Below, piece by piece: positions 1 through 57,725 of a stretch of 64,000 nucleotides of DNA. Both the position numbers and the translations under genes were made by a program. The notes under the pieces are model-generated. The model worked only from the letters and a program-made list of their open reading frames with translations. It made no database searches and had not been told where the DNA came from. Source of the DNA: an uncultured Acidobacteriota bacterium (lineage in GTDB: Bacteria; Acidobacteriota; Vicinamibacteria; Vicinamibacterales; 2-12-FULL-66-21); NCBI GenBank assembly GCA_963740275.1, contig CAVUDT010000004.1, positions 638,247 to 702,246 on the forward strand. Reading direction: 5' to 3'. The stretch's first letter is position 1, and every line of letters begins with the position of its first letter.

Positions 1-435
1 CGCCTCCCGGCGCTTGATCGTTTCGCGCTTGTCGTGCGCCTGCTTGCCCTTGGCCAGCGCGAGCGCCACCTTGACGTGGCCGTTCTTGAAGTAGAGCCGG
101 GTCGGAACGAGCGTCATGCCCTTCTCGACCGTCTTGCCAATCAGCTTGCGGATCTCCTGGCGGTGCAGCAGGAGCTTGCGCTTCCGCGTCGGCAGGTGGT
201 CGGCGTAGCCGCGATGGCTGTACGGGTTGATGTGCACGTTGTACAGCCACACCTGCCCGTCTTCGAGCCGGGCGAAGCTGTCGCGGAGGTTGGCGTTCCC
301 CTCGCGGATCGCCTTCACCTCGGTGCCGACCAGGACGATGCCGGCCTCGAACGTTTCGATGATGTGGTAATCGTGAAACGCCTTGCGGTTCTCGGCGATG
401 TTCTTCTGCGCTTCTTCGCGCGCTGTCTTAGCCAT
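1..435 (-). CDS. smpB: SsrA-binding protein SmpB (C-terminus runs off the window start)
   Basis: Absent from the ORF track because no stop lies in the window. My reverse-strand translation from the ATG (complement of 433-435) reads [101 protein letters not shown]..., a typical SmpB sequence. 8-nt overlap with the pdxA stop. Confidence 0.9.
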
Positions 436-1315
436 GGACTGTTGCCAACCTGGCGGCGAGCTTCACCGCCTCGATCATGCTGGATGGATCCGCCGTGCCC
501 TGCCCGGCGATGTCGAACGCGGTGCCATGATCCACCGAGGTGCGGATGATCGGCAGGCCGAGCGTCACATTCACCGCCTTGCCGAACGCCGCCATCTTCA
601 CCGGGATCAGCCCCTGGTCGTGATAGCAGGCGATCACGGCGTCGAACTCTCCGCGCATCGCCCGGAGGAAGATCGTATCGGCCGGAAACGGACCGTGGAC
701 GGCGATTCCTCTGGCCGCGCCGGCCGCCACCGCCGGCCGCAACACGCGCTCGTCTTCCGTGCCCAGCAGCCCATTCTCTCCTGCATGGGGGTTCAGCCCG
801 GCCACCGCGATCCTCGGCGCCGGGATGCCGAACCGAGGCAGCTCGCTCGCGGTCAGGCCGATGAGCTCCTCGAGCAGCGGCTGCGTGATGGCCGCCGGTA
901 CCTCCGCCAGCGGGATGTGGACGGTGGCGAGCACGACGCGCAGCGACTCGGAGTAGAACATCATCACGCCACGAGGGGCCCCGGTGAGGTGCGCCAGCAG
1001 GTCCGTATGGCCCTTCCAGGGCAAGCCCGCGGCGGCAAACGCCGCCTTGTTGATGGGCGCGGTGGCGATCGCGCCGACTCGTCTGCCGGACGCATCTTCG
1101 ACCGCGCGGACGATCGAGCTGTAGGCCGCCCGGCCGGCCGCCTCACTCACCCGCCCGCGAACGAAGGCCGACAGTTCCTCTTCCGATGAAGGACCGTAGA
1201 GCACCGGCTCACACACGGCAATTACTTGCGGATCTCGTGCCGCCAGGGCGGCGATCTCCGGACCGATGCCCGCGGGGTCCCCGGTGGTGATGGCGACGCG
1301 CGGCCTGGCAGTCAC
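428..1315 (-). CDS. pdxA: 4-hydroxythreonine-4-phosphate dehydrogenase PdxA
   Basis: Frame of ORF 428..1579. Conserved [50 protein letters not shown]. Start set at GTG 1315 (GTGA start/stop overlap with the upstream gene) because the longer ORF overlaps the ricT-like gene. Confidence 0.85.
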
Positions 1316-2091
1316 CGCCGGCACGACCCGCAGCCACCGGCGCCGCAGGAGCCGCAACCGGGCCCGGTGGGATTTCCGCAGCCGCCTCCCTCGTCGGCGC
1401 AGCCGCCGTGCTTCACCCCCTTGCCGTTCGGCAGCTCGTAGCGGAGACAGCACTTCAGGCGGCCGCACATTCCCGACAGCTTGGACGGATTCAAGCTCAG
1501 GTTCTGCTGCTTCGCCATCTTGATCGACACCGGCTCGAACGTCGTCAGCCAGGTGGTGCAGCAGAGCGGACGCCCGCACGCGCCGTAGCCGCCCAGCATC
1601 TTCGCCTCGTCGCGGGCGCCGATCTGCCGCATCTCGATGCGGACGCGGAAGTGCGCCGCGAGGTCCCGGACCAGCTCGCGGAAGTCCACCCGCCCCTCGG
1701 CGGTGTAATAGAAGATCAGGCGCGAGCCGTCGAAGAGCTGCTCGACCCGCGCGAGCTTCATCGGCAGCTGGCGCTCACGGATCTTCAACAGGCAGGTGCG
1801 ATGAGCCTCCTGCTCGCGCTGCTCGTGCTTGAGCCGGGCGATGATGTCCTCTTTGGTCGCCCGGCGGACCACCTGGGCCTCCGGCGCCGGAGCAGGCCGG
1901 CGCTCGGCCAGGGGCCGGATCGCAGCCGTCACCGTGCCGAACGACGGGCCGGCCTCGGTCTGCACGATGACCTTTTCACCGGGGAGGGGAGGCGGCGCGT
2001 CGAGCGCATCGAGATCGAGGTCCGGCAGGGCAAATGAAAACGTCCGCCCGATCGGCGAGAATTTCACGCTGACGAGCGGGCGGGCCTTCAT
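1312..2091 (-). CDS. PSP1-domain protein (RicT/YaaT-like)
   Basis: ORF 1312..2127. PSP1 C-terminal pattern LIFYYTAEGRVDFRELVRDLAAHFRVRIEMRQIGARDEAKMLGGYGACGRPLCCTTWL plus a Cys/Gly-rich tail. Start set at ATG 2091 (MKARPLV). The upstream extension runs into the hairpin repeats. Confidence 0.8.
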   Translation of the reverse strand: MKARPLVSVKFSPIGRTFSFALPDLDLDALDAPPPLPGEKVIVQTEAGPSFGTVTAAIRPLAERRPAPAPEAQVVRRATKEDIIARLKHEQREQEAHRTCLLKIRERQLPMKLARVEQLFDGSRLIFYYTAEGRVDFRELVRDLAAHFRVRIEMRQIGARDEAKMLGGYGACGRPLCCTTWLTTFEPVSIKMAKQQNLSLNPSKLSGMCGRLKCCLRYELPNGKGVKHGGCADEGGGCGNPTGPGCGSCGAGGCGSCRR

Positions 2092-2107
2092 CGCGGCCTC
2101 AACTATA

Positions 2108-2281
2108 TAAGGTCCGGGGACAGGCACCCTAACGAAAGGTGCCGTGTCCCCCGGACAGGCCCCTAATAAGGTCCGGGGACAGGCACCCTAACGAAAGGTG
2201 CCTGTCCCCGATCAAATCTGGAAAGGTGCCTGTCCCCGATCAACATCAGATCCGTGGACAGGCACCCTATCAAATCTGGAA
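2108..2281. repeat. Cluster of GC-rich palindromic repeats (motif GGGGACAGGCACC / GGTGCCTGTCCCC, 7 copies, 3 hairpins)
   Basis: Read directly. Perfect 36-nt duplication at 2108-2143 and 2167-2202. 23-nt duplication at 2193-2215 and 2221-2243. 13-mer atcaaatctggaa at 2211-2223 and 2269-2281. Confidence 0.85.
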
Positions 2282-3265
2282 CGCCAGCCAGTCCGCGACG
2301 ATCTTGGGGCTGGCGTTGCGGTCGAGCGCGTCGAGCGCGCGGTCGACCGCCGCGAAGGCGCCGAGAATTCTCTCGTTGTCGAAGGAGGGCACGAGGCGAT
2401 CCAGCTTCTTCCGCAGATCCGCGTTCGCGAGGCCGCGCTCGTCCGCGTGCGATCCGAGGATACCGAGATCACGCAGGATGGTGGCCAGCGCGCGCAGGCT
2501 CTGACCGAGCGCATCGCGGTCGGCCTTGCTGCGTCCGGCCCCGGGCAGCCCGCCGGCGCCCATGATCCGCCGGGCCGGCGGCGGATAGTCCGCCACCGTT
2601 TCGAGCAGCTGCAACGCGGCCGCGCGTGCGTCCACGAACTCGCTGGTCTCCACTTCCAGGGCGCGGCCGACACTTCCGTCAGAGGAGGCGGCCGCCGCGT
2701 AGGCGTCCGCTTCCGACAACTCGTGAGCGGCCATCAGCACGCCGGCGACTTCGGCCGGCGACAGCCGTCCGAATCGAAGCCGCTGGCACCGCGACCTGAT
2801 CGTCGGCAGCAGCGTTTCCGGCACCGAGCTCACGAGCACGAAGGTGGTGCCGTTCGGCGGTTCCTCGAGCGTTTTCAGCAGCGCGTCCTGCGCCGCCGCC
2901 ATGATCTGCTCCGCATCGTCGATCACCACCACCCGCCGCCGTCCTTCGAAGGGGCGGTAGGCGGCGCGCTCGACCGCGTCGCGGATCTGCTCGATCTTGA
3001 TCGAGCCGGTGTCTCCCGGCTCGATGACCAGGACATCGGCGTGCACCCCACGGGCGATGCGACGGCAGGAGGCGCACTCGCCGCAGGCGTCGTCCGGGGT
3101 GGGACTGAGGCAGTTCACCAGCTGCGCCAGCGCGACTGCCGCCATCCGCTTCCCCACTCCCGCCGGCCCGGCAAAGATCAGGCTGGGCGGCAGCGTGCCG
3201 CGGATCGCGGCGCCGGCTATGAGCGCCTTCACCTGATGATGGCCGGCGATCTCGCGAAAGGGCAT
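2270..3265 (-). CDS. holB: DNA polymerase III delta' subunit
   Basis: ORF 2270..3280. Walker A AGPAGVGKR, zinc module CGECASCRRI, VVVIDDAE, SRCQRLRF. Start at ATG 3265 (MPFREIAGH), or the GTG at 3280. Confidence 0.85.
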   Translation of the reverse strand: MPFREIAGHHQVKALIAGAAIRGTLPPSLIFAGPAGVGKRMAAVALAQLVNCLSPTPDDACGECASCRRIARGVHADVLVIEPGDTGSIKIEQIRDAVERAAYRPFEGRRRVVVIDDAEQIMAAAQDALLKTLEEPPNGTTFVLVSSVPETLLPTIRSRCQRLRFGRLSPAEVAGVLMAAHELSEADAYAAAASSDGSVGRALEVETSEFVDARAAALQLLETVADYPPPARRIMGAGGLPGAGRSKADRDALGQSLRALATILRDLGILGSHADERGLANADLRKKLDRLVPSFDNERILGAFAAVDRALDALDRNASPKIVADWLAFQI

Positions 3266-3346
3266 GGGGGAAAGTAACACGTGCTTAGTGCTACGGGCTA
3301 GGTGCTACGTGCTTACGTGCGATGTGCGGGGTGCGGTGCTATGTGC

Positions 3347-3403
3347 GGCGTGCGGTGCTACGTCCGGCGTGCGGTGCTACGTCCGGCGTGCGGTGCGATG
3401 TGC
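3347..3403. repeat. 19-nt tandem repeat ggcgtgcggtgctacgtcc (2 perfect + 1 degenerate copy) inside a longer GTGC-rich degenerate tract (about 3281-3465)
   Basis: Copies at 3347-3365 and 3366-3384 (identical) and 3385-3403 (3 mismatches). Flanking sequence repeats gtgctacg/gtgcgacg-like words. Confidence 0.75.
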
Positions 3404-3470
3404 TTCTGCACGGTGCGACGTGCGGCGTGCGACGTCGGGCTGCGTGCTCCGCGGCGCGGGCCAGGGAATC

Positions 3471-3950
3471 GACGGTCGCCGATTTCTCACAGGAGACATA
3501 AGGAGGTCAGGAGGATCAGAAAAGACTCCTGCTCTTCTGAACCTCCTGTTCAAGAGCCTTGTCTCGCCGGCGGTCATCGGTCGAAGCCGACGGTCGCGGA
3601 TTTCTGACAGGAGACGAGGAGTTTCAGGAGAACCGGATCCAAAAGCCTCCTGCTCTTCTGACCCTCTGTTCAAAGAGCGCTGTCTCGCTGACGGTCATCG
3701 GTCAAGCCGACGGCCGCGGATTTCTCACAGCAGACCAGGAGTTTCAGGAGAACCGGATCCAAAAGCCTCCTGCTCTTCTGACCTCCTGTTCAGGAGCCTT
3801 GTCTCGCCGGCGGTCATCGGTCGAAGCCGACGGTCGCGGATTTCTGACAGGAGACATAAGGAGTTCAGGAGGATCGGAAAAGACTCTCGATCTTCTGCCT
3901 GTTCAAAGAGCGCTGATTCGCGCACGCTCATCGGAGGCGGTCTGGTTGAG
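3471..3950. repeat. Tandem array of four 118-120-nt units (AGGAG/CAGGAG-rich, internal imperfect hairpin)
   Basis: The word gacggYcgc starts units at 3471, 3589, 3709 and 3829. The units align over their whole length, so there are no unique spacers. Visibly lower GC than the flanking genes. Confidence 0.85.
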
Positions 3951-3974
3951 AAGGCGCGCGTCTACCTGAAAGAC

Positions 3975-4060
3975 GGCTGGAGCTTGGAAGTTGGACCTTG
4001 GAAGTTGGGAGTTGAGCTCGAAGCTGGGAGCTGGCAGCTGGAAGCTGGAAGCTGGGAGCT
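3975..4060. repeat. Short-period GGAAGYTGG / GCTGG repeat tract
   Basis: ggagcttggaagttggaccttggaagttgggagttgagctcgaagctgggagctggcagctggaagctggaagctgggagc. A related tract in the opposite orientation lies at 26690-26716 (ccaacggccaacttccaactcccaac). Confidence 0.65.
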
Positions 4061-6451
4061 TTATCCCCCTCCTCCCGGCTTCTTCTTCGGATCCTCCTTC
4101 TTCGGATCCTTCTTGTCCTTGTCATCTCCCTTGCCGAACAGGCGCCCCCAGAAGCCGCGCTTCTTCTTCGGTTCCTCGACCTTCTGCGTCGGCGGGGTCT
4201 CGCCGGGGGTGGCGCCAGGAGTGCCGGCGGGAGGAGCGGCGGTGCCGCTGGTCCGGGCGGCGGTCGGCGGCAGACCGAGTTCGTCGGACGAGACCGGGCG
4301 TCCGGCGTCGCCGGCGCCGAAGACTCCGGCCAGCCGGTCGAGCAGCGACGGGCTGGCGTGCAGCGGGCAGAGCGAGTCCGGCTGCGTGCCGCGAATGAAG
4401 AACTCGGTATAGATCATCGATTTGGACTCGACGAAGCCCTCCGACGACACGACCTGCACGCTGTCACAACCGTTGTTGGGGAGACGCCCCGACATTCGGC
4501 AGACGTTGACGCCGATGACCTCCGGAGGCCGCTCGAACCAGTCGCTCTTGTGCTTCTTGGTGGCGACCTTCATGAAGTTCGCCCAGATCGGCACCGCCAG
4601 CTCGCCGCCGTAGCCGTTGGCGATGATCGTCTGCGGCTGATCGAAGCCGATCCAGACGCCGGTCACGATCCGCGGTGTGAAACCGACGAACCAGGCGTCC
4701 ACGTAGTCGTTGGTCGTGCCGGTCTTGCCCGCCGCCGGCAGCGTAAACCCGACCTGCCGCGCCCGGTAGGCCGTGCCGTAGTTCACAACGTCGGAGAGCA
4801 TGCTGGCCATCAGATACGCGGTGCCGCGGCTGACGGCCTGATGCGCCTTGGTGTCGGCCTGGTAGAGAACGCCCCCTTCACTGTCCTCGACGCGGCGGAT
4901 CAACGTCGGCTGCCGGATGATCCCCTCGGCCGCGAATGCGCCATAGGCCGAGGTCATCGCCATCAGGGTGACGTCACTGGTGCCGAGCGCCATCGACGGC
5001 ACGCTCGGCGGCGTGCCCATATTCAGCTTTTCGGCGTAGCCGACGGCGTTGGCGATACCGACCGCGTTGAGCAGCTGGACGGCGGCGCGGTTGCTCGAGG
5101 TGCGCAGCGCGGTCCGGAGCGTCATGGAGTCGACGGTCGAGTGCTCGTCTTCGGGTACCCACTCGCCCTGGAGCGTCTGGATCGGGTCGTTCAGCTTCGT
5201 GATGACCGTCGCCGGGCTGTAGCCCGCCTCGAGCGCGGCCGCGAACACGAACGGTTTGAACGCGGAACCCGACTGCCTCTTCGCCTGCGACGCGCGGTTG
5301 AAGCGGCTCTCGTTGAAATCGCGCCCTCCGACCATCGCCAGCACGTGGCCGGTCGCCGGATCCAGTGAGACCAGCGCGCCCTGCAGGTAGGCGGGCTGCT
5401 CCCCTTCTTTCGGGACCGTCTGTTCCTTGCGGGTCTGGTACTTGAACGCCTTGCGCGACTCGATCTCGGCGACTCCGCGTTCCACCAGCGCTTCGGCCGC
5501 CTGCTGCAGGTCGGAATCCATCGTGGTGTAGACCTTGAGGCCTCCCTGGTAGACCCGCTGCCAGCCGAAACGGTCGACCAGGTCCTTGCGCACCTGCTCC
5601 TTGAAATACAACCCGTAGGTTTCGCGGATCTCCAGCGCATTCTGCAGCTTTACCGGCTGGCCCTTCGCCTGTTCGAGGCCGGCGGCGTCGAGCGCCCCGG
5701 TCGACACCATGGCGCCCAGCACCACGTTCCGGCGGGAGATCGCACGATCCAGGTTGACCGTGGGGGCGTAACTCGAGGGGGACTGGATGAGACCGGCGAG
5801 CAGGGCCGCTTCGGCGACCGAAAGCGCCGACGCCGACTTGCCGAAGTAGCCGCGCGAAGCTGCCTCAACACCATACAGACCGTCCCCGAAATACACCTTG
5901 TTGAGGTACAGCTCGAGAATCTGCTTCTTGGTGTAGTGGCTCTCGATCTGGGCCGCGAGGATGACCTCCTTCAGCTTCCGCCGGTAGGTCTTGTCGCGAC
6001 TGAGAAAGCTCTGTCGGGCGAGCTGCTGGGTAATGGTGCTGCCGCCTTCCGCCCGCCGCCCCTCCTGGAAATTCCGCAGCGCCGCGGCCGCCACCCGGAT
6101 CGCATCCACCCCGCTGTGCTCGTAGAAACGCTGGTCCTCGACCGACACCACCGCCTTGATGAAATTCGGGGACATCTTCTCGAGGGGCACCTCGATCCGC
6201 TGTTCCTTGAAAATAGTGAAGACGGCCTGGTCATTTGCGTCGTAGATGGTGGTCGACTGGGCCATATCGCCGAGGCCGCCGACCGCCTGGGAATTCGGCA
6301 ACCCTGCGGTCAGGTCATAACTGAACCAGGCGACATACCCGACGGTCAGGAACAGTGCAATCGCCATCGCCGAAACGAGGCTCCCCAACGTCCGCGGGCG
6401 GCCGGAAAGTGCAGATCTCAGACGACTTATGGCCGGGGAGAGGTATTTCAT
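4061..6451 (-). CDS. mrcA: Class A penicillin-binding protein (PBP1A; glycosyltransferase + transpeptidase)
   Basis: ORF 4061..6643. GT51 motifs EDQRFYEHSGVD, GGSTITQQL, RKLKE. Transpeptidase motifs SAFK (SxxK), SSN (SxN), KTGTT. N-terminal TM segment. Start set at ATG 6451 (MKYLSPAI). Lys/Pro/Asp-rich C-terminal tail. Confidence 0.9.
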   Translation of the reverse strand: MKYLSPAISRLRSALSGRPRTLGSLVSAMAIALFLTVGYVAWFSYDLTAGLPNSQAVGGLGDMAQSTTIYDANDQAVFTIFKEQRIEVPLEKMSPNFIKAVVSVEDQRFYEHSGVDAIRVAAAALRNFQEGRRAEGGSTITQQLARQSFLSRDKTYRRKLKEVILAAQIESHYTKKQILELYLNKVYFGDGLYGVEAASRGYFGKSASALSVAEAALLAGLIQSPSSYAPTVNLDRAISRRNVVLGAMVSTGALDAAGLEQAKGQPVKLQNALEIRETYGLYFKEQVRKDLVDRFGWQRVYQGGLKVYTTMDSDLQQAAEALVERGVAEIESRKAFKYQTRKEQTVPKEGEQPAYLQGALVSLDPATGHVLAMVGGRDFNESRFNRASQAKRQSGSAFKPFVFAAALEAGYSPATVITKLNDPIQTLQGEWVPEDEHSTVDSMTLRTALRTSSNRAAVQLLNAVGIANAVGYAEKLNMGTPPSVPSMALGTSDVTLMAMTSAYGAFAAEGIIRQPTLIRRVEDSEGGVLYQADTKAHQAVSRGTAYLMASMLSDVVNYGTAYRARQVGFTLPAAGKTGTTNDYVDAWFVGFTPRIVTGVWIGFDQPQTIIANGYGGELAVPIWANFMKVATKKHKSDWFERPPEVIGVNVCRMSGRLPNNGCDSVQVVSSEGFVESKSMIYTEFFIRGTQPDSLCPLHASPSLLDRLAGVFGAGDAGRPVSSDELGLPPTAARTSGTAAPPAGTPGATPGETPPTQKVEEPKKKRGFWGRLFGKGDDKDKKDPKKEDPKKKPGGGG

Positions 6452-6636
6452 CTGCAGGTGGCTATCGCAAGATGCGGGCCGCGGGGCAGCCATTCGGGGG
6501 TGTTTCGTCGATTTCCGGTCCCGGCGTTCGTCTCTGATCCAAACACGGCGCGGGGTCCAGACAATGCTCAGAATGTCGATGGGCCGCCGTAATCGACACC
6601 ACCAGTTTAGTTTGTCCTGACGGACAAGGAGACGGA

Positions 6637-6989
6637 ATGCCACGATACGTTCTTCTGCTGCACGACGCCCCTGAGGCCCTGGCCGCCCTCAGCCCGGAAC
6701 AGATTCAACAGGTCATCCAGAAATACGTCGCCTGGGGGGAGCGCCTGCGTGTGGCCGGCGTGCTGCAGGGCGGAGAGAAACTCACCGACGAGCCCGGCCG
6801 GGTGATGCGGGGCAATGGCGGCCAGGTCCGCGTGACCGACGGTCCGTACAGCGAGACCAAGGAGGTCCTGGGCGGCTATTACATCGTCGCCGCCGACAAC
6901 TACGACCGGGCGGTCGACCTGGCGCGGGATTGTCCGCATTTCGAGTACGGCGGAACGCTCGAGGTCCGGGAGATCGATACTGTTCCCGA

Positions 6990-6993
<4 letters not shown>
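6637..6993 (+). CDS. YCII-related (DGPF) domain protein
   Basis: 118-aa ORF. MPRYVLLLH...DGPYSETKEVLGGYYIVAADNYDRAVDLARDCP is the YCII/DGPF pattern. ATGA overlap with the following sigma factor gene. Confidence 0.85.
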
Positions 6994-8270
<1,277 letters not shown>

Positions 8271-8307
8271 AAGCCCGGCAACCGTCGCGCGCCGAGCCGG
8301 TGGTCCG

Positions 8308-8760
8308 CTACGACTTCGCCTTCGGCGCCCGGTGAAACCACTTGTGCACGATCTTCCAGTCGTTGCCGACCTTGAGCAGCGAGAAGTAGTCGGTGATGGT
8401 CGTGTCAGGAAAATCGAGCTGCACCTTGGCGACAGCGGCATCCCCGGTCACGTCGACCATGACGACACGCCGCTTGCGGCTGGCTTCGTCGGCGGCCGGC
8501 TTCCCCTGGAAGCCCGCGATGTACTCGGTGCTGGTGCGGGTTCGCAGCTGCCCGTCGGCGATCCACATCATCCGCCCTTCGTCGATGAACGTGCCTTTGA
8601 GGTGGCTGCCGTCACCGGTTGCCTGTGCCTTGAAGTAATGGTCCTCGATCGTCTTGCGGACGGCGTCGCCCGCCGCGCTCTTCGTCTGGGCCAGCATGGC
8701 GCCCATGGCGCAGGTAACGATGACGGCCGGGAGGACTGCGAATCGGAGCAGTTTCATCAT
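8308..8760 (-). CDS. Secreted NTF2/SnoaL-like (lumazine-binding-type) protein
   Basis: 150-aa ORF with signal peptide MMKLLRFAVLPAVIVTCAMGAMLAQ and C-terminal DYFSLLKVGNDWKIVHKWF, typical of NTF2-fold proteins. Confidence 0.65.
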   Translation of the reverse strand: MMKLLRFAVLPAVIVTCAMGAMLAQTKSAAGDAVRKTIEDHYFKAQATGDGSHLKGTFIDEGRMMWIADGQLRTRTSTEYIAGFQGKPAADEASRKRRVVMVDVTGDAAVAKVQLDFPDTTITDYFSLLKVGNDWKIVHKWFHRAPKAKS

Positions 8761-8791
8761 GCTCCGACGCTAGCACGCGGTGGATACGACG

Positions 8792-9631
8792 TCAGAGGCG
8801 CTGGGACGAAACGCTATCTCCGGTGACGAAGAAACCGGTCAGCTCCGCGGCGTTCACCAGGTGCTCGGACGGCGAACAGCCGGCGAGCTGACGGAACTCG
8901 CGGATGAAGTGCGACTGGTCCGCGTAGCCGCAAGTGACCGCGGTGACCACGCCGCGCTGGCGCGGGTCGGCAGCTTCGAGCACGGCGAGCGCGCGCTGGA
9001 ACCTGGTGATCCGCGCCAGCCGCTTGGGTGATACGCCTACCGCGTCGAGGAAGCGCCGCTCGAGATGCCGCCGGCTGATCGACGCCTGGCCGGCGAGGGC
9101 GTCGATCGACACGGTGCCCCCGGCCTTCACGATGGTGTGAGTCACGAACCGAACCCGCGCATCGGCGTCGTCGGGACGGATAGCTCCCTCGAGCGCCTGC
9201 TGCACCAGGGTTACGGCGTCGTTGACGTCTGCCGTGCGGTTCAATACGGCGCGGATCGCTCGGGCCAGCGACGAGGACACGTCGTCCAGCGCGATCGTCT
9301 GGCCGATCAGATGATGCTGAGGGACGTCGACGAAGGCGGAGGCGCCGAACGGGTGGAACCGGACCCCCAGCACCGCCACCTCTCCAGTGGGGCGCAGCGC
9401 CAGCCGCTCCAACAGCTGCCCGGCGAACAGCACGCGCGGCTGACGCGCGACGGTTCCATCGCCGGAGACGCGATCGAAGGGGTCGCCGAAATGGATCACG
9501 AGCTCCGGCCGGCCGTCCGGCAGAACCGGCTGCACGGCTCCGTCCAGCTCCGACGCGTGCCCGGTCAGCGTCCAGATCCGGTCGACGAATCGGGCCAGCG
9601 CACGCGAGGGGGGAAACTCCCGGTAGTTCAT
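8792..9631 (-). CDS. AraC-family transcriptional regulator
   Basis: 279-aa ORF. C-terminal HTH VTAVTCGYADQSHFIREFRQLAGCSPSEHL. Divergent from the 9707 gene. Confidence 0.8.
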   Translation of the reverse strand: MNYREFPPSRALARFVDRIWTLTGHASELDGAVQPVLPDGRPELVIHFGDPFDRVSGDGTVARQPRVLFAGQLLERLALRPTGEVAVLGVRFHPFGASAFVDVPQHHLIGQTIALDDVSSSLARAIRAVLNRTADVNDAVTLVQQALEGAIRPDDADARVRFVTHTIVKAGGTVSIDALAGQASISRRHLERRFLDAVGVSPKRLARITRFQRALAVLEAADPRQRGVVTAVTCGYADQSHFIREFRQLAGCSPSEHLVNAAELTGFFVTGDSVSSQRL

Positions 9632-9706
9632 GGGTGCCCGGCAAACTATCGCGGCGGTCGCATTTGTTCAAGCGGAATGCGCACGGGCCGCGTTAGAGTC
9701 ACCCGC

Positions 9707-10642
9707 ATGCGCCACCTGCCGATCGTCGCTCTTCTCGCCCTGCCGCTGCCCGCGTCCGCGTCACCGCAGCAGCCACCGGATCTTTCCGGAACGTGGAGCC
9801 TGCCGCCCGACGCCCCGCTGGCGCCCAACGGCAAGCCGGCGGTGGCCGCCGGTTTCGGGCCGACGATCAACATCCGGCAGGATCCCGGCGCGATCACGAT
9901 CGCGAAGGTCATGGGCGGCCAGACCGTCCACGTCGTCCATCCACTCGATGGTTCCGAGAGCCGCAGCCGCACTCCCGGACGTCTGTGCGAGGGGGATTCT
10001 CACTCGGTCTGGACCGCGGCCTGGCAGGGCGACCGGCTCCTCACCACCCTGGTCGGATCAGTCCCGCCGGGCGCCACGACGATGACGAAGATGGAGGTGC
10101 GGACCACTTTCCGGTTGCAGGCCCCTGACACGCTGGCGATCGAGATGACGTTCCGCAACGCCAGCATGACCGAGCCGCGCACCGTCACGACCTTGTACCG
10201 CAAGACCGGTCCGCCGGCGGAAGTGGCGGTGACCGCAGCGGCCCCGCTCGAAGCGACGATCGCGCAGATCGACTGGCTTGGCGGCACGTGGGTCGGCGGC
10301 ACCGGCGCCAGCGCGTTCGAAGAACGCTGGACGCCGCCGGCCGGCGGATCGATGCTGGCCGTGGCCCGGACGATGAGGAACGGCGTCATGAACGCCTTCG
10401 AGTTCCTCTGCATTGTCGAGCGCAACGGCGGGCTGGTCTACCAGGCGATGCCGAACGGCCGGCAGCCGGCGACCGACTTTACGCTGACCAAACGGGACGG
10501 GAACAGCCTGACCTTCGAGAACCCGGCCCACGATTTTCCGAAGATGATCCGGTACACGCTCGGATCCGATGGCACCCTGGAGGCGGTCGTCAGCGGCTCG
10601 GACAAGCAGAAACCGCAGGTGTTCCGGTTCAAGAAGCAGTAA
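9707..10642 (+). CDS. Secreted hypothetical protein (lipocalin-like N-terminal half, DUF6265-like C-terminal half)
   Basis: Frame of ORF 9065..10642, start at ATG 9707 (MRHLPIVALLALPLPASA signal peptide). The C-terminal IDWLGGTWVG...FEFLCIVERNGGLVYQAMPNG...FPKMIRYTL resembles DUF6265 as I recall it. Confidence 0.55.
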   Translation: MRHLPIVALLALPLPASASPQQPPDLSGTWSLPPDAPLAPNGKPAVAAGFGPTINIRQDPGAITIAKVMGGQTVHVVHPLDGSESRSRTPGRLCEGDSHSVWTAAWQGDRLLTTLVGSVPPGATTMTKMEVRTTFRLQAPDTLAIEMTFRNASMTEPRTVTTLYRKTGPPAEVAVTAAAPLEATIAQIDWLGGTWVGGTGASAFEERWTPPAGGSMLAVARTMRNGVMNAFEFLCIVERNGGLVYQAMPNGRQPATDFTLTKRDGNSLTFENPAHDFPKMIRYTLGSDGTLEAVVSGSDKQKPQVFRFKKQ

Positions 10643-10691
10643 GTATTTGTACCTCGGGATCAGACCGTGGTCTGACCCCACCACGGCGGGC

Positions 10692-11409
10692 TTACTTCTC
10701 CTTCGCCGCGAACGCTCGGCTCCGCTCGAGCAGCTCCCGAACTTCGTCGTCGGTCGTCTGCGAAAAGTCTCGATACCAGAGGCCGACCGCGGAGAACAGC
10801 GCCGGCGTGCGGGCGCAGACGACTTCGTCGCTCAACGCCGCCAGCGCAAGGCAGGTATCGGGCGCACCCACCGGGACAGCGACAACGACGCGCGACGGGG
10901 CGTGGGCGCGGACCGCCTGGACCGCAGCCTTCATCGTGGAGCCGGTGGCCAGGCCGTCATCGACGAGGATCGCGATCATCCCCTGGAGCGCTGCGGGGAC
11001 GCGGCCCTGGCGATACTCCCGTTCGCGGCGATCGAGTTCGGTTTGCTCGCGGCCGTGCGACTTCGTCTATCGACTGCGGGTCGATGCCGTACCAGCTGAC
11101 CACTTCGTCGTTCAGGACGCGTACTCCTCCGGACGCGATGGCCCCCATCGCCAATTCCGGCTGCGAGGGGACGCCGAGCTTGCGCACGAGGAAAATGTCG
11201 AGGAGAACGCCGAGCGCGGTGGCAATCTCGAAGGCGACGGGGACGCCGCCGCGCGGCAGCGCCAGCACCACCACGTCATCGCGGTTCGCGTACGCGCCAA
11301 GGCGGCTGGCGAGGTCGGCGCCGGCTGCCCGCCGATCGTCATACGGCTGAAGTGTCTCTGGATGCGGCCGCACGGGTGACCTCAGAGCTGGCCCGGTCGA
11401 GAACTGCAA
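10692..11409 (-). pseudogene. Phosphoribosyltransferase, frame disrupted as sequenced
   Basis: Two ORFs (10957..11409 and 10692..10979) together give one PRTase. N-terminal part: VVVLALPRGGVPVAFEIA. C-terminal part: MIAILVDDGLATGSTMKAAV (PRPP loop). Shifting frame near 11045-11058 restores REQTELDRREREYRQGRVPAALQG between them, consistent with a 1-nt insertion. Confidence 0.75.
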
Positions 11410-11452
11410 GCCCGGTACCGCGGGGACGCCGGCAGACGGAATCGAGCCGCGT

Positions 11453-13648
11453 TCAGAACCGATAGAGGTACGACGTCTTCATGAAGAAGCCCCGGCGGGT
11501 GGTCAGGTACTCGCCTGCCCCCGGTACCCACGCGTCCCCCAGGAAATCGCGACGTTCGTAGAGCGAGCCGTAGCCGACGTAGCCGACCGTTCCGGGCCGC
11601 AGCTCGTACGAGGCCAGGAAGTCGGTCAGGACGCGCGCGCGCAGGCTGTCGTATTGGACGATCGCGCGAAGAAAGAATTGCTTGCTGAACTGGAAAGTCG
11701 TGCGGGTATTCAGCAGGTCGAGCTCGTAGACGGGCTCGCGGGTGTCGGCGCGGCGGAAGTCGACGCGGCGGTAGCCGATCGACTGGTTCATCCGTGCAGT
11801 CGGCTGCCACAAGATGTCGAGGGAGCCGGCACGGGACCAGCCAGCGAATGGTGCCGTCTCGTCGTAGAAGGTAGCGGCTCCCCAGTTGATGCTGCCATTG
11901 ATCCGGATCCAGCGGAACAGCTGCACTTCTCCCTGCACGCGCGGACGGTCGATCGAGTACTGCTGCCCCTGCCAGGGCTCTTCTCCCATCACCTGGTCGA
12001 TGCGCAGAAAGCCCTGGCGGGTGAAGTTCGTGCGCACGCCGGCAACCATCACCCGGTCGTCTCCACGAGCGACACGGTCGCGGCCGTACTGCGCGTACAC
12101 GAACGGAGTGATCCGCCGGACCCACGAGAACCTCCCGGCGCCGGGATAGAAGCTCCAGTCGGTGTAGCCCCATCCGCTGGTGATCCCGACCCGGTTGTAG
12201 AACGCCGTGTCCATCCGGAAGTCGCGATCGTAGTGCTCGAAGAACCCCTGAATATTCTGGCGACGCGTGCTGTAGGTCCAGCTGGCGGAGCCGGCAAACC
12301 CGCCGCGGGCCCCGGTGCCGTCGATTTCGCGTGACCGTGAATACAACGCCATCCCGGTGACGCGCTGGTTCGCGCTGACCCGCCAGGACAGATCGCTGCC
12401 GGCAACACGGTTGAACGCCGCGTCGGATTCCATGTCGGTGAAGATGGCCCCGACGTAGTTGCCGGCGCTGGGGCTGTACTGCAGCCGCCCGATGTTGAAC
12501 AGCCGGTCCTCGGCGGCTCGACCCTCGACCTCCGGCACGTCGTCCATTGCGGTGAGCGTGCCGAACTGGAGCCGGCCGGTACTGCCGGTCAGCTTGATGC
12601 CGGCGCTCGGATTCACGATCCGGCGGGTATGGACGGCCGAGATCATGCTGCTGTCCATGCCGCTGCCGGCAAGGGTGAAGAGCCCCGCGCCTTCCATGAA
12701 GAAGGGGCGCTTCTCGGAGAAGAAGACCGGAAACCGTTGATTGACCTCGATCTGGAAGGCGTCGCTCTCGACCTGGCTGAAGTCGGGATTGACCGTCGCA
12801 TCCAGGGTGATCGTCGGGGTGAGCCCGAGCTTGGTGCTGAGGCCGAAGTCACCGTGGCCATCGGCCGAGCCCCAGCGCTCCGGTGCCTGACGTTCCTGGC
12901 TGGTCGAGAACGTGGCGCTCGGAATCAGTTCCCGCGTGAGCACCGACTCGAGCCGATCGAAGGTCAACGACGCATGCTTCTCGAAAACCCATCGCCCGGG
13001 CTCGAGCGGCGGCCAGGCGACCGAGACGCCGGCCCGGCTGATCCGCCGCCAGAACAGCACCCCCATCCGGACGCTGTCGCCACCCTTGAACCGGATCGAG
13101 GCGAGCGGCAGCCGGATCTCCACCGCGTAACCGCGATCGTTGACGCGGCCGGCGCTGTCCCAGATGTAGTCCGGTGATTCGTCTTCGCTGCCGGAGGCGG
13201 TGTTGATCATGTCCAGCTGGATGCCGCTGGGATTCACCATCAGGTGGTAGGAGAGCTGCCCGGTGCCGAGGGCGTCGAGGCTCAGACCGACCCAGTCGTC
13301 GCTCCAGATGTTGTCGCGGCGGGTGATCGAGGTCTTGATCCGCGCCGGTTCCGGATCGTCGCACTGGAAGGCGAAGTACAGGTAGCGCGCGTCATACCCC
13401 ACCCACACCCGTGTCTGCTGCGGCACGCGGCTGCCGTGCAACGGGTTGTACGACAGCCACTCACCGATGGGTTGGGCCTGGGCTTGCCACGCCTCGTCAT
13501 CGAGCACGCCGTCGATGGCGGGGGGCGTCGCCAGCCGCACCGCCGACAACGAGGCGCGACTGGACTCCTGCGCCGCCGCAGCCGTGACGTCCGCAAGCAG
13601 CAGGCCGGCGAAGACGGCCGACATGAGCGCCGGCTGGATGCGCCGCAT
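11453..13648 (-). CDS. Outer-membrane protein, CBM9/DOMON-like N-terminal domain + DUF5916-type beta-barrel
   Basis: 731-aa ORF with signal peptide. AIDGVLDDEAW...ARYLYFAFQCDD...GYAVEIRLPL, then a long beta-rich region ending YLYRF (terminal Phe typical of OMPs). Confidence 0.7.
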   Translation of the reverse strand: MRRIQPALMSAVFAGLLLADVTAAAAQESSRASLSAVRLATPPAIDGVLDDEAWQAQAQPIGEWLSYNPLHGSRVPQQTRVWVGYDARYLYFAFQCDDPEPARIKTSITRRDNIWSDDWVGLSLDALGTGQLSYHLMVNPSGIQLDMINTASGSEDESPDYIWDSAGRVNDRGYAVEIRLPLASIRFKGGDSVRMGVLFWRRISRAGVSVAWPPLEPGRWVFEKHASLTFDRLESVLTRELIPSATFSTSQERQAPERWGSADGHGDFGLSTKLGLTPTITLDATVNPDFSQVESDAFQIEVNQRFPVFFSEKRPFFMEGAGLFTLAGSGMDSSMISAVHTRRIVNPSAGIKLTGSTGRLQFGTLTAMDDVPEVEGRAAEDRLFNIGRLQYSPSAGNYVGAIFTDMESDAAFNRVAGSDLSWRVSANQRVTGMALYSRSREIDGTGARGGFAGSASWTYSTRRQNIQGFFEHYDRDFRMDTAFYNRVGITSGWGYTDWSFYPGAGRFSWVRRITPFVYAQYGRDRVARGDDRVMVAGVRTNFTRQGFLRIDQVMGEEPWQGQQYSIDRPRVQGEVQLFRWIRINGSINWGAATFYDETAPFAGWSRAGSLDILWQPTARMNQSIGYRRVDFRRADTREPVYELDLLNTRTTFQFSKQFFLRAIVQYDSLRARVLTDFLASYELRPGTVGYVGYGSLYERRDFLGDAWVPGAGEYLTTRRGFFMKTSYLYRF

Positions 13649-13745
13649 TCAGCCGTTAGACGGCGCCACCCCACCAAACGTTCTGTGGGCCAGGATCTCT
13701 TTCGGAAACCGCCGCGCTTCGGTGGCGCCTATAATCCGTCGCGTG

Positions 13746-15041
13746 ATGCCCCTCTTGCCAGCCCGGATGAACTTGCGGCTCGGACGCGTCGTGGCGTGTC
13801 TGCTGATTGCCGTGGCGTCCGCCACGGTGGCGGCCCAGGACCGCCGTCCACCGGATCCTGCCGTCCTGGGTGTCGATGCGGCAACCGACGCGTATCTGGC
13901 GACGGTTCCCGCGGAGGCCAGGGCGCGCTCCGACTCGTATTTCGAAGGGGGCTACTGGCTCAGCCTGTGGCAGTTCCTGTTGTCGTCACTGGTGCTGATT
14001 CTGATGCTCCACACCGGGATCTCGGCGCGTATCGGCGAGACGGCGAAACGCCTGACCCGTCACAGGTGGTTGCACCCGGCCATCTATTGGGTCGCTTTCC
14101 TGGTGATTACCGCGGCTCTCGAGTTCCCGATGACCGTCTATGCCGGCTTCTGGCGCGAGCACCAGTACGCGCTTGCGACCCAGACCTTCGGAGGATGGAT
14201 GGGTGATCAGCTGAAGGGCTTCGGGCTCGGCCTGGTGCTGGGGGCCATCCTCACTGCCGGCCTCTACGCCGTCGTACGCAGGATGCCCCGAACCTGGTGG
14301 CTCTGGGGTTCGGTCGTCATGATCGCCGCCATCGCGTTTATCGCCACCCTCGGGCCGGTCTTTATCGCCCCACTGTTCAACACCTACAAGCCGCTCGAAA
14401 GCGCGTCGATCCGTGAACCGATCCTGCGCCTGGCGCACGCCAACGGCATCGCGGCTGATGAGGTCTGGGAAATGGACGCGTCACGACAAACGACCCGGAT
14501 CAGCGCCAACGTGAGCGGCATGTTCGGCACCGATCGGATCACGCTCAACGACAATCTGTTGAAGCGGGCATCACCCGCGGCCGTAGAGGCGGTCATGGGG
14601 CACGAGATGGGGCATTACGTGCTCAATCACGTCTACGAAATGATCGTCAACTTCGCGGTGATCATCGCGGCCGGTTTCGGGCTCACCGGATGGGCGTTCG
14701 AGCGGCTCGCGGCCCGCTATCGCGATCGGTGGCGGATCGCCGGCATCGCCGACCCGGCCGGCCTGCCGCTGGTGGTGCTGATCCTCGGCGCCTACCTGTT
14801 CGTGCTGACGCCGGTGCAGAACACGATCATCAGGACCAACGAGTACGAGGCCGATATCTTCGGCCTCAACGCCGCCCGCCAGCCCGACGGCTTCGCCGAA
14901 GCGGCCCTGCTGCTCGGGGACTACCGCAAGCTCGATCCGGGGCCGCTCGAAGAGATGATCTTCTTCGATCATCCGAGCGGCCGCACCCGCATTCGCGCCG
15001 CCATGCAGTGGAAGGCGAATCAGGCCCCCCCGGACCGTTGA
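13746..15041 (+). CDS. M48-family (Ste24/HtpX-like) membrane zinc metalloprotease
   Basis: Frame of ORF 13446..15041, start at ATG 13746 (or 13767). Several TM segments. HEMGHYVLNH (HExxH) and a downstream NEYEADIFG glutamate. Confidence 0.8.
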   Translation: MPLLPARMNLRLGRVVACLLIAVASATVAAQDRRPPDPAVLGVDAATDAYLATVPAEARARSDSYFEGGYWLSLWQFLLSSLVLILMLHTGISARIGETAKRLTRHRWLHPAIYWVAFLVITAALEFPMTVYAGFWREHQYALATQTFGGWMGDQLKGFGLGLVLGAILTAGLYAVVRRMPRTWWLWGSVVMIAAIAFIATLGPVFIAPLFNTYKPLESASIREPILRLAHANGIAADEVWEMDASRQTTRISANVSGMFGTDRITLNDNLLKRASPAAVEAVMGHEMGHYVLNHVYEMIVNFAVIIAAGFGLTGWAFERLAARYRDRWRIAGIADPAGLPLVVLILGAYLFVLTPVQNTIIRTNEYEADIFGLNAARQPDGFAEAALLLGDYRKLDPGPLEEMIFFDHPSGRTRIRAAMQWKANQAPPDR

Positions 15042-15134
15042 TCCGGCCGGGGCCCTCATCCGCACGGACCTGCCTGGCCGTCGTGCTCATCGGATTTCCC
15101 GACGGGCACGGCGGCAGGCATGTGGATTTGGAGA

Positions 15135-15740
15135 CTAGCGCCGACGGGCCGCTTTGACCGTGGCGCGCGGTGCGCTCTTCGCAAGCTTCGGCTTTTTCAC
15201 ATCATCGTCCTCATCCTCATCGCTTTCGGGGCCTTCGGGATGAGCTGCATCCGCCGCTTCCTGGTTGATGCCACCTTCCGCGAGGCCGGAGAGCTTCTGG
15301 TCGGCGGACTTCTCTTCTTCGAGGGTCTGCTGCAGCAGGTCAGCCGCTTCGGTGTGACCCATCGCCTGCGCCCACGCCACCAGCGTGCCGTACGCGGCCA
15401 TCTCGTAGTGCTCGGCGCGCTGGGCCGAGGCGATCAGGCAGGCGTCCATCGTGGTCTCGTCGAAGTCCTCTTCCATCACCGACTTGCCCTCTTCGATGAT
15501 CCCGGCCATGCCATCGCAGTGCTTGCCGCGGACCTTCTCGTCGAGGCTTTCGAATACTTCCTCCAGCCGTGCGACCTGCCCTCTCGTTTCTTCGAGGTGC
15601 GATTCGAACGCGGCGCGGAGGTCGGGTGAGCTGGCGGCTTTCGCCAGCTTCGGCAGTGCCTTGGTCAGCTGTTTTTCGGCGTCATATGTGTCGCGCAGTT
15701 CATCGATGAATGCGTCGTGAAGCGTGCCTGCTTGAGCCAT
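15135..15740 (-). CDS. DUF892 / YciE-YciF ferritin-like stress protein
   Basis: Start at ATG 15740 (MAQAGTLHDAFIDELRDTYDAEKQLTKALPKLAKAA...) with AGGAGA about 8 nt upstream. Acidic/Lys-rich C-terminal tail. Confidence 0.8.
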   Translation of the reverse strand: MAQAGTLHDAFIDELRDTYDAEKQLTKALPKLAKAASSPDLRAAFESHLEETRGQVARLEEVFESLDEKVRGKHCDGMAGIIEEGKSVMEEDFDETTMDACLIASAQRAEHYEMAAYGTLVAWAQAMGHTEAADLLQQTLEEEKSADQKLSGLAEGGINQEAADAAHPEGPESDEDEDDDVKKPKLAKSAPRATVKAARRR

Positions 15741-15945
15741 AGGTCGGGTCTCCTGGGGGAAAGATGATCTGATGGGCCGGGCGGTGTGTAATTGAACGGC
15801 GCGCGGCCATGTTGCCGAGCGAGTCAGAGCATGTTGCGTACCAGGCTCGCTGAGGCTGGTCAACGCACGTCCCAACCTTCATGACGGCTGGTTCACTGGG
15901 GCCTTGGGTCCTGGTGCGAACCTGAGCTTGACATTGCCGGCATCG

Positions 15946-17331: not shown

Positions 17332-17340
17332 GCCATGGTC

Positions 17341-18459: not shown

Positions 18460-18714
18460 CCCGCGCCTTGGAAACACGGTCCGTGCTTGTCGTCTTTTCG
18501 CCATGGTGCTCCTCACTTACTAAAGCGGAAAGGAGCGACAAAAAGTCGGGCGTCGGGAGAGAGCGGCCGGACGTCAGGTGAGGCGCCTCAACCGTGAGAC
18601 ACGGAACTCTTCATTCTTTCAGGCGGTAACCGCGGTCATCCTGTCCAAACATCTGGAAGGGCTCCGGAAGGCTTAGAATGCCGGGGACGCGCGCCTGCGG
18701 CACGGCGACTGCCC

Positions 18715-26683: not shown

Positions 26684-26887
26684 CAACAATTCCCAACGGC
26701 CAACTTCCAACTCCCAACAATCAACGACGGCATCGCGGTCGTGACCCTTTCACCGCAGAGACCGCGGAACACGCAGAGGATTCTTCTGATGGTGTTCTCT
26801 GCGCTCTCTGCGCCCTCGGCGGTGATTTCTTTCTGCCGTCACTGACCGGTCGCTAGTTCTATATTCTGAGTTCTTCGTTCTGAATTC

Positions 26888-36767: not shown

Positions 36768-36788
36768 TCGTCGATCGATCCGGTGTTT

Positions 36789-36879
36789 CTTGAACAGGAG
36801 TTCAGGAGTTCAGGAGAACTCTCTCTCAGAACTGTTCCCTTGAACTCTTGACCTCATGTAGAAAGTCAGCACCCGGGAC
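36789..36879. repeat. Solo copy (about 90 nt) of the AGGAG/CAGGAG-rich intergenic element family
   Basis: cttgaacaggagttcaggagttcaggagaactctctctcagaactgttcccttgaactcttgacctcatgtagaaagtcagcacccgggac. Aligns along its length with 41474-41562 in the same orientation, and its 5' half aligns with the 3471-3950 units. Confidence 0.65.
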
Positions 36880-41408: not shown

Positions 41409-41473
41409 CGCGCGCGGTTGACGAGAAGGTTGCGAGACGTCAGCGCCTTGGACCGCTGAGAAGCTTCGCTCGC

Positions 41474-53677: not shown

Positions 53678-53723
53678 GGATCACCTGCGATCTCGACACG
53701 ACAGCGCATAATACTTCCGCCAG

Positions 53724-57631: not shown

Positions 57632-57632
57632 C

Positions 57633-57662: not shown

Positions 57663-57725
57663 GGCAAGCCGTCAGCCTCGATCCGCGGCTGGTGTCAGCG
57701 AGAGTTGGCTCTGAGCGGTCGTTTC

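Follow-up and report, generated by a model that had tools for sequence, protein, structure and literature searches.

A window of 64,000 nucleotides (the whole stretch of DNA analysed here) from an uncultured bacterium of the order Vicinamibacterales, phylum Acidobacteriota, carries a tandem array at positions 3470-3950, in the gap between the penicillin-binding protein gene mrcA and the DNA polymerase III gene holB. We showed that this array is a local tandem amplification of a segment of about 120 bp containing one member of a family of long palindromes. We propose, with a probability of roughly 0.55, that the array is an amplified member of a palindrome family resembling the repetitive extragenic palindromes (REPs) and acting as a hairpin at the 3' end of RNA; this putative function is deduced from positional statistics. 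The four-unit array by itself is probably a by-product, and we saw no sign that its four-unit state is a designed structure. The main interest lies rather in the family and in a wider class of gene-end hairpins whose arms are tandem repeats.

The palindromic family and its position relative to genes

The palindrome of the array units has the form (NN-CAGGAG)x3, AT-rich loop, (CTCCTG-NN)x3, and the consensus of the family has AACAGGAG-ATCAGGAG-ATCAGGAG before, and CTCCTGAT-CTCCTGAT-CTCCTGTT after, a short AT-rich loop. Three tandem 8-mers make up each arm, the stem measures about 24-30 bp and the loop is often itself self-complementary. A profile built from the array units and two proposed solo copies was run with nhmmer over the whole window and matched exactly six copies, namely the four units on the minus strand and two solo copies on the plus strand (36785-36877 and 41471-41560). 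A degenerate hairpin pattern (AACARRRGN{1,3}YAGRAGNNCRRGAGN{6,30}CYCYTGA) matches five of these six copies, with 0 matches expected by chance in the window, and it matched at least 116 stretches in a collection of one genome per species. Among the matches listed, all but one came from metagenome-assembled genomes (MAGs) labelled Acidobacteriota, Vicinamibacteria or Vicinamibacterales; the sole exception, L076 (related loci and contigs are cited by such L numbers), is labelled Alphaproteobacteria and is orthologous to a Vicinamibacterales locus. Two MAGs have at least nine family loci each, and the window has three loci (six copies) in 64 kb. The same pattern gave no match in 2.9 million viral contigs, which led us to reject a phage or viral origin.

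We analysed 141 copies taken from related loci (8-kb loci, a sample of about 0.95 Mb in total). The arms hold three hexamer units in 94 copies, two in 29 and four in 8, and a strand-neutral alignment of the palindromes, which extended past the three-unit arms, gave a median of 30 pairs and a median loop of 10 nt. The hexamers are strongly conserved, the two bases between them are variable and the spacing of 8 bp is strict. The element ends are AACAGGAG...CTCCTGTT and its flanks are symmetric (AA...TT). Searches of Rfam 15 at gathering scores returned only three tRNAs in the window and nothing in 18 related loci; under relaxed conditions (the gap at E<=10; one canonical copy) they returned only sub-threshold generic models of miRNA precursors, that is, of long hairpins. 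The original prediction that this is not any described element therefore holds within the libraries searched. In full-text literature searches we did not find a description of such repeats in Acidobacteria, and an order-wide hairpin family in Vicinamibacterales is apparently undescribed.

Among called genes, 40 copies fall in convergent, 70 in co-directional and 12 in divergent gaps, for a baseline of 129, 499 and 112 gaps, respectively (chi-square p=3e-5, or p=8e-12 when weighted by gap length). The copies are thus enriched between convergent genes and depleted between divergent genes beyond what gap length predicts. Nearly all of them (130 of 141) are intergenic or at a locus edge, the remaining 11 overlapping called genes at their ends. 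In co-directional gaps the element begins at a median of 16.5-17 nt from the upstream stop codon (53 of 70 within 50 nt) and ends at a median of 56 nt from the next start, and in convergent gaps it lies about 10-15 nt from either stop. In several copies the stop codon is itself part of the palindrome base (TGAACAGGAG, TAACAGGAG).

The CAGGAG palindromes belong to a broader pattern, revealed by running a palindrome finder (score >=30) on 487 intergenic gaps of 30-1500 nt. Long hairpins were present in 50 of 87 convergent gaps (57%), 101 of 297 co-directional gaps (34%) and 19 of 103 divergent gaps (18%), and in 3 of the 487 gaps after sequence shuffling. Considering hairpins of all kinds, 65 were nearer the stop and 35 nearer the start (p=0.004). 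As many as 83 long hairpins were not of the CAGGAG type, and the arms of many of them are tandem 7-8-mers (CCCAACT/AGTTGGG, GGTTCNG, AAGTAGA, ACGGAGNN, GGTGCCAA, CACGAAG and others); the commonest tandem-repeat periods in the related loci are 7, 14 and 21. We found no earlier description of this wider class either. Our best argument comes from two relatives in which such hairpins are exchanged. Behind one gene, a CAGGAG hairpin in L011 has its place taken in L042 by an (AAGTAGA)n hairpin; at the next gene end the situation is reversed, with a CAGGAG hairpin in L042 and a (GGGGCTT)n/(AAGTCCC)n hairpin in L011, the recurrent mismatch of which corresponds to a G.U pair on the sense strand. The swapping of non-homologous hairpins at the same gene ends suggests that the position itself requires one. 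Because tandem-repeat arms can pair in any register, slippage could lengthen them stepwise while the helix is kept. This would provide a simple route of origin, by which hairpins of this architecture may be gained and lost quickly.

Several copies are interrupted. A search for split arms over the whole sample, aimed at an autonomous insertion sequence (IS) with the same ends, found no common transposase, and the inserts are heterogeneous: an IS110-family element, a GxxExxY gene, an esterase gene and a 330-nt segment. In L047 (5692-6346) a frameshifted gene of the GxxExxY family (TIGR04256) stands between CAGGAG arms as if inserted in the loop, the only such case in the ~0.95 Mb. In L080 (2057-3558) the esterase gene lies between an orphan left arm, the AGGAG of which is 9 nt before the ATG, and a full hairpin, and the orthologous site in L065 (957-1015) has a single hairpin only; the arrangement is as if a whole gene had been inserted at the hairpin. 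In L099 (912-1315) a CAGGAG left arm is followed by an insert of about 330 nt with a long palindrome of its own and then by a full hairpin, and the same gap in L058 (4307-4373, 80% identical) is 66 nt long and filled with (CTGCTAT)n. We also noticed other recurrent palindromic families, GGCTTCCGCCTGAAGGCGGAAGCC and CGGGTCTGAAGAACAAGACCCGGCCTAC...GTAGGGCGGGTC (L018, L004, L040; L110, L020, L113), as well as a tandem array outside coding sequence in L047 (7386-7843; period 82 nt, 5.8 copies), unrelated to the CAGGAG family.

The array and the other copies in the window

Tandem Repeats Finder places the array at 3470-3878, with a period of 120, 3.4 copies, 84% matches and a score of 561; a degenerate fourth unit (u4), in which decay sets in after about 3911, extends it to about 3950. 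Cut at 3470, 3588, 3708 and 3828, the units align end to end with a mean column identity of 81%. The original prediction, made from the letters of this DNA alone, had described a four-unit tandem array with units of 118-120 nt in a gap of about 800 bp, and had denied it a repeat-spacer architecture on the ground of full-length alignment; the period of 120, the 3.4-4 units, their alignment over the full 118-120 nt and the gap of 795 nt, with domain matches for both flanking genes, bear this out. The same is true of the mosaic of half-units that it had reported: the unit alignment shows a 5' half of type A in u1 and u4 (CATAAGGAG.TCAGGAGGATC.G----AAAAGACTC) and of type B in u2 and u3 (..AGGAGTTTCAGGAGAACCGGATCCAAAAGCCTC), and a 3' half of type X in u1 and u3 and of type Y in u2 and u4. 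Its two loop variants were also recovered, u1-u3 retain the inner CAGGAG/CTCCTG stem, which is degenerate (CTCTCG) in u4, and the GC content of the array is indeed below that of its flanks (0.555-0.58 across 3501-3900 versus about 0.65-0.78).

The native orientation of the element in the array is the minus strand, because the units read on that strand have a 3' tail in common with the solo copies; this is also the strand of both flanking genes. First in the direction of the flanking genes comes u4 (3828-3950), matched by nhmmer from 3911 to 3829 (E=3e-20), with an element at about 3829-3911 whose hairpin is degenerate (CTCCTG to CTCTCG) and with its unique upstream flank retained. It is followed by u3 (3708-3827; B-type loop, GGCTTTTGGATCCGGTT; element 3709-3795, E=7e-24) and u2 (3588-3707; B-type loop; element 3589-3678, E=6e-26). 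The last unit, u1 (3470-3587), has an A-type short loop and a palindrome at about 3489-3552, and its minus-strand fold reaches -46.9 kcal/mol (z=-3.3). The fold of the whole array is marginally better than that of shuffled sequences (z=-1.57) and mixes the arms of neighbouring units. The hairpin is followed, after about 25 nt, by the duplication junction (..CGACCGTCG|GCTTCGACCGATGACCG..), and the duplicated block therefore consists of the hairpin and about 55 nt of GC-rich flank.

Comparison with relatives showed that unit number varies at this locus, with four units in the window, one in L117 and 2.3 in L127. The holB product has a 99% identical homologue on contig L117, the flanks of which are 93-96% identical to the DNA of the window; its gap of 475 nt contains a single B-type unit between the same unique flanks, including the downstream flank that follows u1, and u2 and u3 are the window units closest to that single unit. 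Searching metagenome contigs with a 21-mer spanning the duplication junction gave one true relative, L127, the other four of five matches being chance occurrences inside coding sequence. L127 is 95.6% identical over the PBP gene and contains 2.3 units (Tandem Repeats Finder period 120). An IS110-family transposase gene (863-1985; DEDD_Tnp_IS110, Transposase_20) breaks up the left arm of its third unit (GAACAGGAG|ATACC...), what remains of a CAGGAG hairpin is found on the far side of the insertion (700-790), and synteny with holB is lost. Relatives with a holB product 73-82% identical keep the same neighbours (PBP upstream; holB, PSP1, pdxA and smpB downstream) with a gap of 48-127 nt and no CAGGAG hairpin; in one of them, L121, the gap is filled with other heptamers. 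From the hairpin-free gaps of these more distant relatives we infer that the element came into this gap, or originated in it, in recent times and later multiplied from one unit to four. Recombination or conversion between units, which the original prediction had suggested, is plausible and would fit the 1, 2.3 and 4 units seen in relatives. L043 carries two tandem units of similar period at another gene end, and no other locus has more. Arrays with a 120-nt period in L018 and L083 turned out to be coding repeats and are unrelated.

The array occupies the 3' flank of the upstream gene, which encodes a class A penicillin-binding protein (PBP1A, mrcA-like; 4061-6643, minus strand; Transgly 5e-66, Transpeptidase 1e-33), and precedes holB, the gene for the delta' subunit of DNA polymerase III (2270-3265, minus strand). 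The remainder of the gap holds two other repeat tracts, both read on the minus strand. A heptamer tract (CCAGCTT/CCAACTT)n at 3976-4060 comes directly after the PBP1A stop codon and differs in copy number in L117 and L127. A 7-nt repeat tract (AGCACNT-like) at 3279-3435, with six 19-nt units at 3317-3431, comes directly before the holB ATG and differs in copy number in L117. The heptamer CCAACTY recurs at 26687-26718 of the window, and in MAGs L078, L060, L012, L004 and L001 it forms hairpin arms. In the gap between holB and PSP1 (2107-2281), which is 10 to 170 nt long in relatives, a 37-nt unit (ATAAGGTCCGGGGACAGGCACCCTAACGAAAGGTGCC) is present in two exact copies and one degenerate copy and could form a long hairpin. 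The codon-usage gene caller found no gene inside the mrcA-holB gap. We considered a protein-coding repeat in the plus-strand open reading frame (ORF) 3264-4412 and rejected it: this ORF has no Pfam match, runs antisense into the PBP gene, has its frame broken by the 118-nt unit and the loop indels, and is not regarded as a gene.

The two solo copies lie where the original prediction had placed related sequences, near 36789 and 41474 (nhmmer E=4e-19 and 3e-18). The first, S1 (36785-36877, plus strand), has three clean CAGGAG units per arm and a fold of -41 kcal/mol (z=-3.6). It follows the stop codon of the triose-phosphate isomerase gene (36767) by about 18 nt when counted from the nhmmer element and by 27 nt from the palindrome, and precedes the ATG of an FtsX-type permease gene (36889) by about 11 and about 30 nt, respectively. 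The latter gene (36889-39354), identified from its translation only, resembles the FtsX/MacB-type 'duplicated orphan permease'. The second, S2 (41471-41560, plus strand), lies between the convergent genes for a copper amine oxidase (ending at 41408, plus strand) and an HlyD-family protein (ending at 41581, minus strand). All three loci of the window are therefore downstream of a co-oriented gene (PBP, triose-phosphate isomerase, copper amine oxidase).

Two further regions, 26740-26887 and 49600-49660, had been taken for probable degenerate relatives, an assignment we abandoned since nhmmer found no match there even at E<10. The first contains a long hairpin at 26747-26820, downstream of a minus-strand gene ending at 26888, with arms (GCAGAGA)n and (TCTCTGC)n on the minus strand; this hairpin is analogous to the CAGGAG family in its architecture and not a homologue. 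The second contains only two TCTAAGAA words. Elsewhere in the window, internal DNA repeats (families D3, D4 and D8) are spaced 1-3 kb apart across 51.5-59.4 kb; judged from these repeats, 51259-59459 may be a cluster of paralogous minus-strand genes.

RNA hairpin or DNA palindrome

In the mechanism we favour, replication slippage or unequal recombination between units would have generated the array, and unequal crossing-over or gene conversion its mosaic of half-units. Transcription of the upstream gene, in this case the PBP1A gene on the minus strand, would include the element as the 3' untranslated end of the RNA, and the long RNA hairpin would define or protect the 3' end of the transcript, as a terminator that is factor-assisted or independent of a U-tract and/or as a barrier against 3' exonucleases, as proposed for REP elements. 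Owing to its symmetry, one copy could serve both genes of a convergent pair. Four copies would probably add little over one, at most a stronger barrier between mrcA and holB. Canonical terminator matches at 1-20000 of the window are at chance level (9 versus 8.8 expected), and another 3'-end signal is therefore needed. The copies have the sense-strand location of a terminator just downstream of the stop codon and lack the combination of GC-rich hairpin and U-tract of the canonical intrinsic type, the consensus after the last CTCCTG being TT and then mixed bases. Of the original suggestion of a 3' or 5' untranslated region (UTR) array, the 3' part thus agrees with the siting of the family just downstream of stop codons, and control of holB through its 5' UTR is disfavoured.

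Several comparisons bear on whether pairing is selected in RNA. A G.T mismatch in a palindrome becomes a tolerated G.U pair in the RNA of one strand and an A.C mismatch in that of the other. In CAGGAG hairpins of co-directional gaps we counted 93 G.U pairs in the sense orientation versus 60 in the antisense (p=0.009), or 25 versus 9 by element; an earlier and looser count gave 121 versus 94 overall and 102 versus 63 within 60 nt of the stop (p=0.003). For covariation we used 58 copies. RNAalifold picked the wrong register because the arms are internally repetitive, and the structure of 24 pairs was therefore written by hand; 87.5% of the cells are paired in it, versus 40-54% when the partner columns are slid. 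Finally, in five pairs of orthologous loci (77-95% identical) the stems show 52 differences in 369 positions and the 60-nt flanks 157 in 600 (Fisher p=9e-6), and in L071 and L076 the arms are almost identical while the flanks can no longer be aligned. The low divergence of the stems points to constraint or homogenisation, at a level, RNA or DNA, that it does not specify. The expectation in the original prediction that substitutions preserve the stems is thus only weakly supported: pairing is conserved and there is a modest excess of G.U pairs, and it is conservation of sequence that underlies the pairing.

A number of observations weigh against a role as RNA 3'-end hairpins. The fraction of paired cells falls only to 87.1% when partners are shuffled, and the covariation score was reached by 29 of 500 shuffles; because covariation does not exceed the shuffle controls, structure cannot be separated from sequence conservation, and the pairing rests on sequence conserved in both arms, not on demonstrable compensatory change. 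The G.U bias is modest and absent in the long hairpins that are not of the CAGGAG type (153 versus 143), and the sense excess could come, at least partly, from a mutation bias linked to transcription. Likewise, gene conversion or quasi-palindrome correction could account for the lower divergence of the stems in place of selection. U-tracts are absent, TTTT occurring within 10 nt downstream in only 3 of 69 copies, and termination at hairpins lacking a U-tract is poor for the RNA polymerases examined to date (PMC3993855). Stems of 24-30 bp would also be substrates for RNase III, contrary to simple stabilisation. The first hairpin of the array stands some 150 nt away from the mrcA stop, an unusual distance for the family, and the positional statistics depend on genes called with a crude home-made codon-usage caller, trained on the long ORFs of the loci and covering 84% of them.

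The main rival explanation, which we consider possible though on the whole rather unlikely, is that the family is purely selfish or neutral palindromic DNA, similar to REPs or to miniature inverted-repeat transposable elements (MITEs), tolerated only just after stop codons, the array being a neutral minisatellite. Complementarity would then be kept at the DNA level, by a transposase recognising the arms, by quasi-palindrome template switching or by gene conversion. This would explain why the same sequence recurs at hundreds of unrelated sites in many species, and why it is the sequence that is conserved and not covarying pairs. Three further facts favour it: orthologous sites differ in whether they have a copy (the mrcA-holB gap; L099 versus L058); the copies show no preferred orientation relative to genes, a profile of the asymmetric type found in the window giving 35 versus 30 in other genomes; and the copies of the window have a common tail of about 25 nt past the hairpin (CTCCTGT-GAGAAATC-GCG.CCG in the solo copies and the reverse-complemented units), which implies that they were copied from one another. 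The IS110-family insertion in one copy is of a kind known for REPs (PMC1525189). The arms could be read as the terminal inverted repeats of a MITE. Against a purely selfish nature, no consistent direct duplication of a target site flanks the copies, their flanks merely continuing the palindrome (AA...TT), and no transposase or gene resembling the REP-associated tyrosine transposases (RAYTs) was found with the family among the few ORFs scanned. It would not predict the excess of G.U pairs on the sense strand, the depletion of divergent gaps beyond the prediction from length or, above all, the non-homologous hairpins of the same architecture at the same gene ends of relatives. A selfish origin and a function for the host are in any case compatible, as with REPs.

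An extension of the RNA 3'-end hypothesis, which we regard as speculative and doubtful, would be that Vicinamibacterales mark most of their transcript ends with self-renewing long hairpins whose arms are tandem 7-8-mers. The dominant type, CAGGAG/CUCCUG, might then act as a look-alike of the Shine-Dalgarno and anti-Shine-Dalgarno pair within the ribosome footprint of the stop codon, linking the terminating ribosome with the release of the transcript or the processing of its 3' end, or a lineage-specific factor might recognise the hairpin. The hairpins might in addition be preferred landing or recombination sites for IS110-family elements, the GxxExxY nuclease gene and whole genes, and gene ends would then be the plastic points of these genomes. 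A Shine-Dalgarno signal itself is weak: with crude start calls, GGAG was found upstream of 15.5% of called starts versus 6.8% of controls, which makes a role of the hairpins as Shine-Dalgarno decoys neither more nor less likely.

It is improbable that the inverted hexamers spaced by 8 bp are the sites of a DNA-binding protein (a nucleoid, segregation, restriction-modification or uptake-related factor) and that the hairpin is incidental. Conservation of the hexamer with variable bases between hexamers, the strict spacing, and the perfect symmetry without orientation bias are what such a binding array would produce. The octamer ATCAGGAG, however, occurs outside hairpins 40 times, a count equalled by 139 of 1120 composition-matched permutations, and siting after stop codons with enrichment between convergent genes is unexpected for a site that organises the chromosome, as are hairpins of quite different repeat units at equivalent sites. 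A DNA uptake sequence was rejected on the same lack of enrichment of the octamer outside hairpins.

Still less probable is a multi-copy structured small RNA (sRNA) locus or a 5' UTR array controlling holB, the sRNA locus and a 5' UTR array having been raised in the original prediction. The array does precede holB on the same strand, its units are each capable of a stable hairpin, and the AGGAG-rich arms resemble Shine-Dalgarno sequences or the GGA motifs bound by CsrA-type proteins. These GGA motifs are, however, buried in the stem, the units compete in pairing within the whole-array fold, covariation is not significant, and Rfam has no match; no sigma-70-like promoter was found at 1-20000 of the window (0 matches versus 1.7 expected), and although the flanking genes are unchanged, close relatives have a single unit and more distant ones none; the sRNA locus is thus not supported. 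Finally, integron attC sites, of which the array would be a run of empty cassettes, are extremely unlikely: imperfect palindromes right after ORFs, ends resembling core sites (..YAAC / GTTR.., as in TTTAAC...GTTAAAC of L083) and the seemingly whole-gene insertion of the esterase gene in L080 are outweighed by copies dispersed after housekeeping genes, in both orientations and in convergent gaps instead of co-oriented cassette arrays, by a duplication junction about 25 nt past the hairpin and not at a GTT core, and by internally repetitive symmetric arms, unlike attC R and L boxes with their extrahelical bases.

Significance and comparison with known systems

Vicinamibacterales (Acidobacteria subdivision 6) count among the most abundant bacteria in soil and their gene expression is almost unstudied, so that a family of hairpins located after stop codons offers a concrete handle on how their transcripts end. 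The family is useful for annotation, where it marks gene ends and helps operon calling, and it probably causes breaks in assemblies and differences in copy number between strains. The swapped hairpins made of tandem 7-8-mers provide a natural example of slippage building and replacing structural signals.

The family resembles the REPs and their clusters (bacterial interspersed mosaic elements, BIMEs) in consisting of dispersed, apparently high-copy imperfect palindromes in extragenic DNA, concentrated at gene 3' ends and in convergent gaps, rare in divergent gaps and often about 15-20 nt from the stop codon. Clustering is common to both, and REPs have been proposed to stabilise the upstream mRNA or to aid termination. 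The element differs from REPs in being about twice as long, with a palindrome of about 55-85 nt instead of 20-40 nt and a stem of 24-30 bp instead of roughly 12-15 bp, in having arms of three tandem 8-mers and in being AT-richer than its genome, REPs being GC-rich. The copies of the array are direct and do not alternate in orientation as in BIMEs. We know of no association of this family with RAYTs. REPs are also targets of IS110-family insertion (PMC1525189, PMC3733652), as is the copy in L127, and they carry at one end a conserved GTAG or CGTC tetranucleotide (PMC3733652) that is missing here. The REP/MITE-like repeat among the original candidates is thus retained as far as a dispersed palindromic family, with its matches in many genomes, is concerned, and fails on the length and the tag of REPs.

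With intrinsic terminators, including 'I-shaped' hairpins poor in U-tracts, the family has in common a hairpin at most 50 nt from a stop codon; clusters of hairpins have been proposed as terminators without poly-U (PMC8355165), and very long stems are known in some terminators (PMC10325885). It departs from them by the scarcity of U-tracts, by a stem that is AT-rich relative to the genome and by the reuse of one sequence genome-wide. The array behaves as a minisatellite or variable-number tandem repeat in its 118-120-bp unit, in its unit number among relatives and in mosaics consistent with unequal exchange, with the difference that its unit is a member of a dispersed palindrome family plus about 55 nt of flank and not an arbitrary sequence. 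It is not a CRISPR array, since its units align fully and leave no unique spacers.

The inverted pairs of DNA uptake sequences in Neisseria, where a conserved word forms terminator-like hairpins downstream of genes, are another parallel; in the present family the word is not over-represented outside hairpins and is present three times per arm, and we know of no link to competence. Last, the heptamers of cyanobacterial short tandemly repeated repetitive (STRR) sequences and the TAACTGA repeats of Beggiatoaceae are lineage-wide, intergenic, variable in copy number and of unknown origin (PMC4679880, PMC4692102), and the TAACTGA repeats, for the most part direct, are found immediately upstream of start codons (PMC4679880). 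Tandem 7-8-nt repeats in intergenic DNA are the shared trait, many different 7-8-mers coexisting in the same genomes here; in contrast, the repeats of Vicinamibacterales are arranged in inverted pairs, which build long hairpins beside stop codons.

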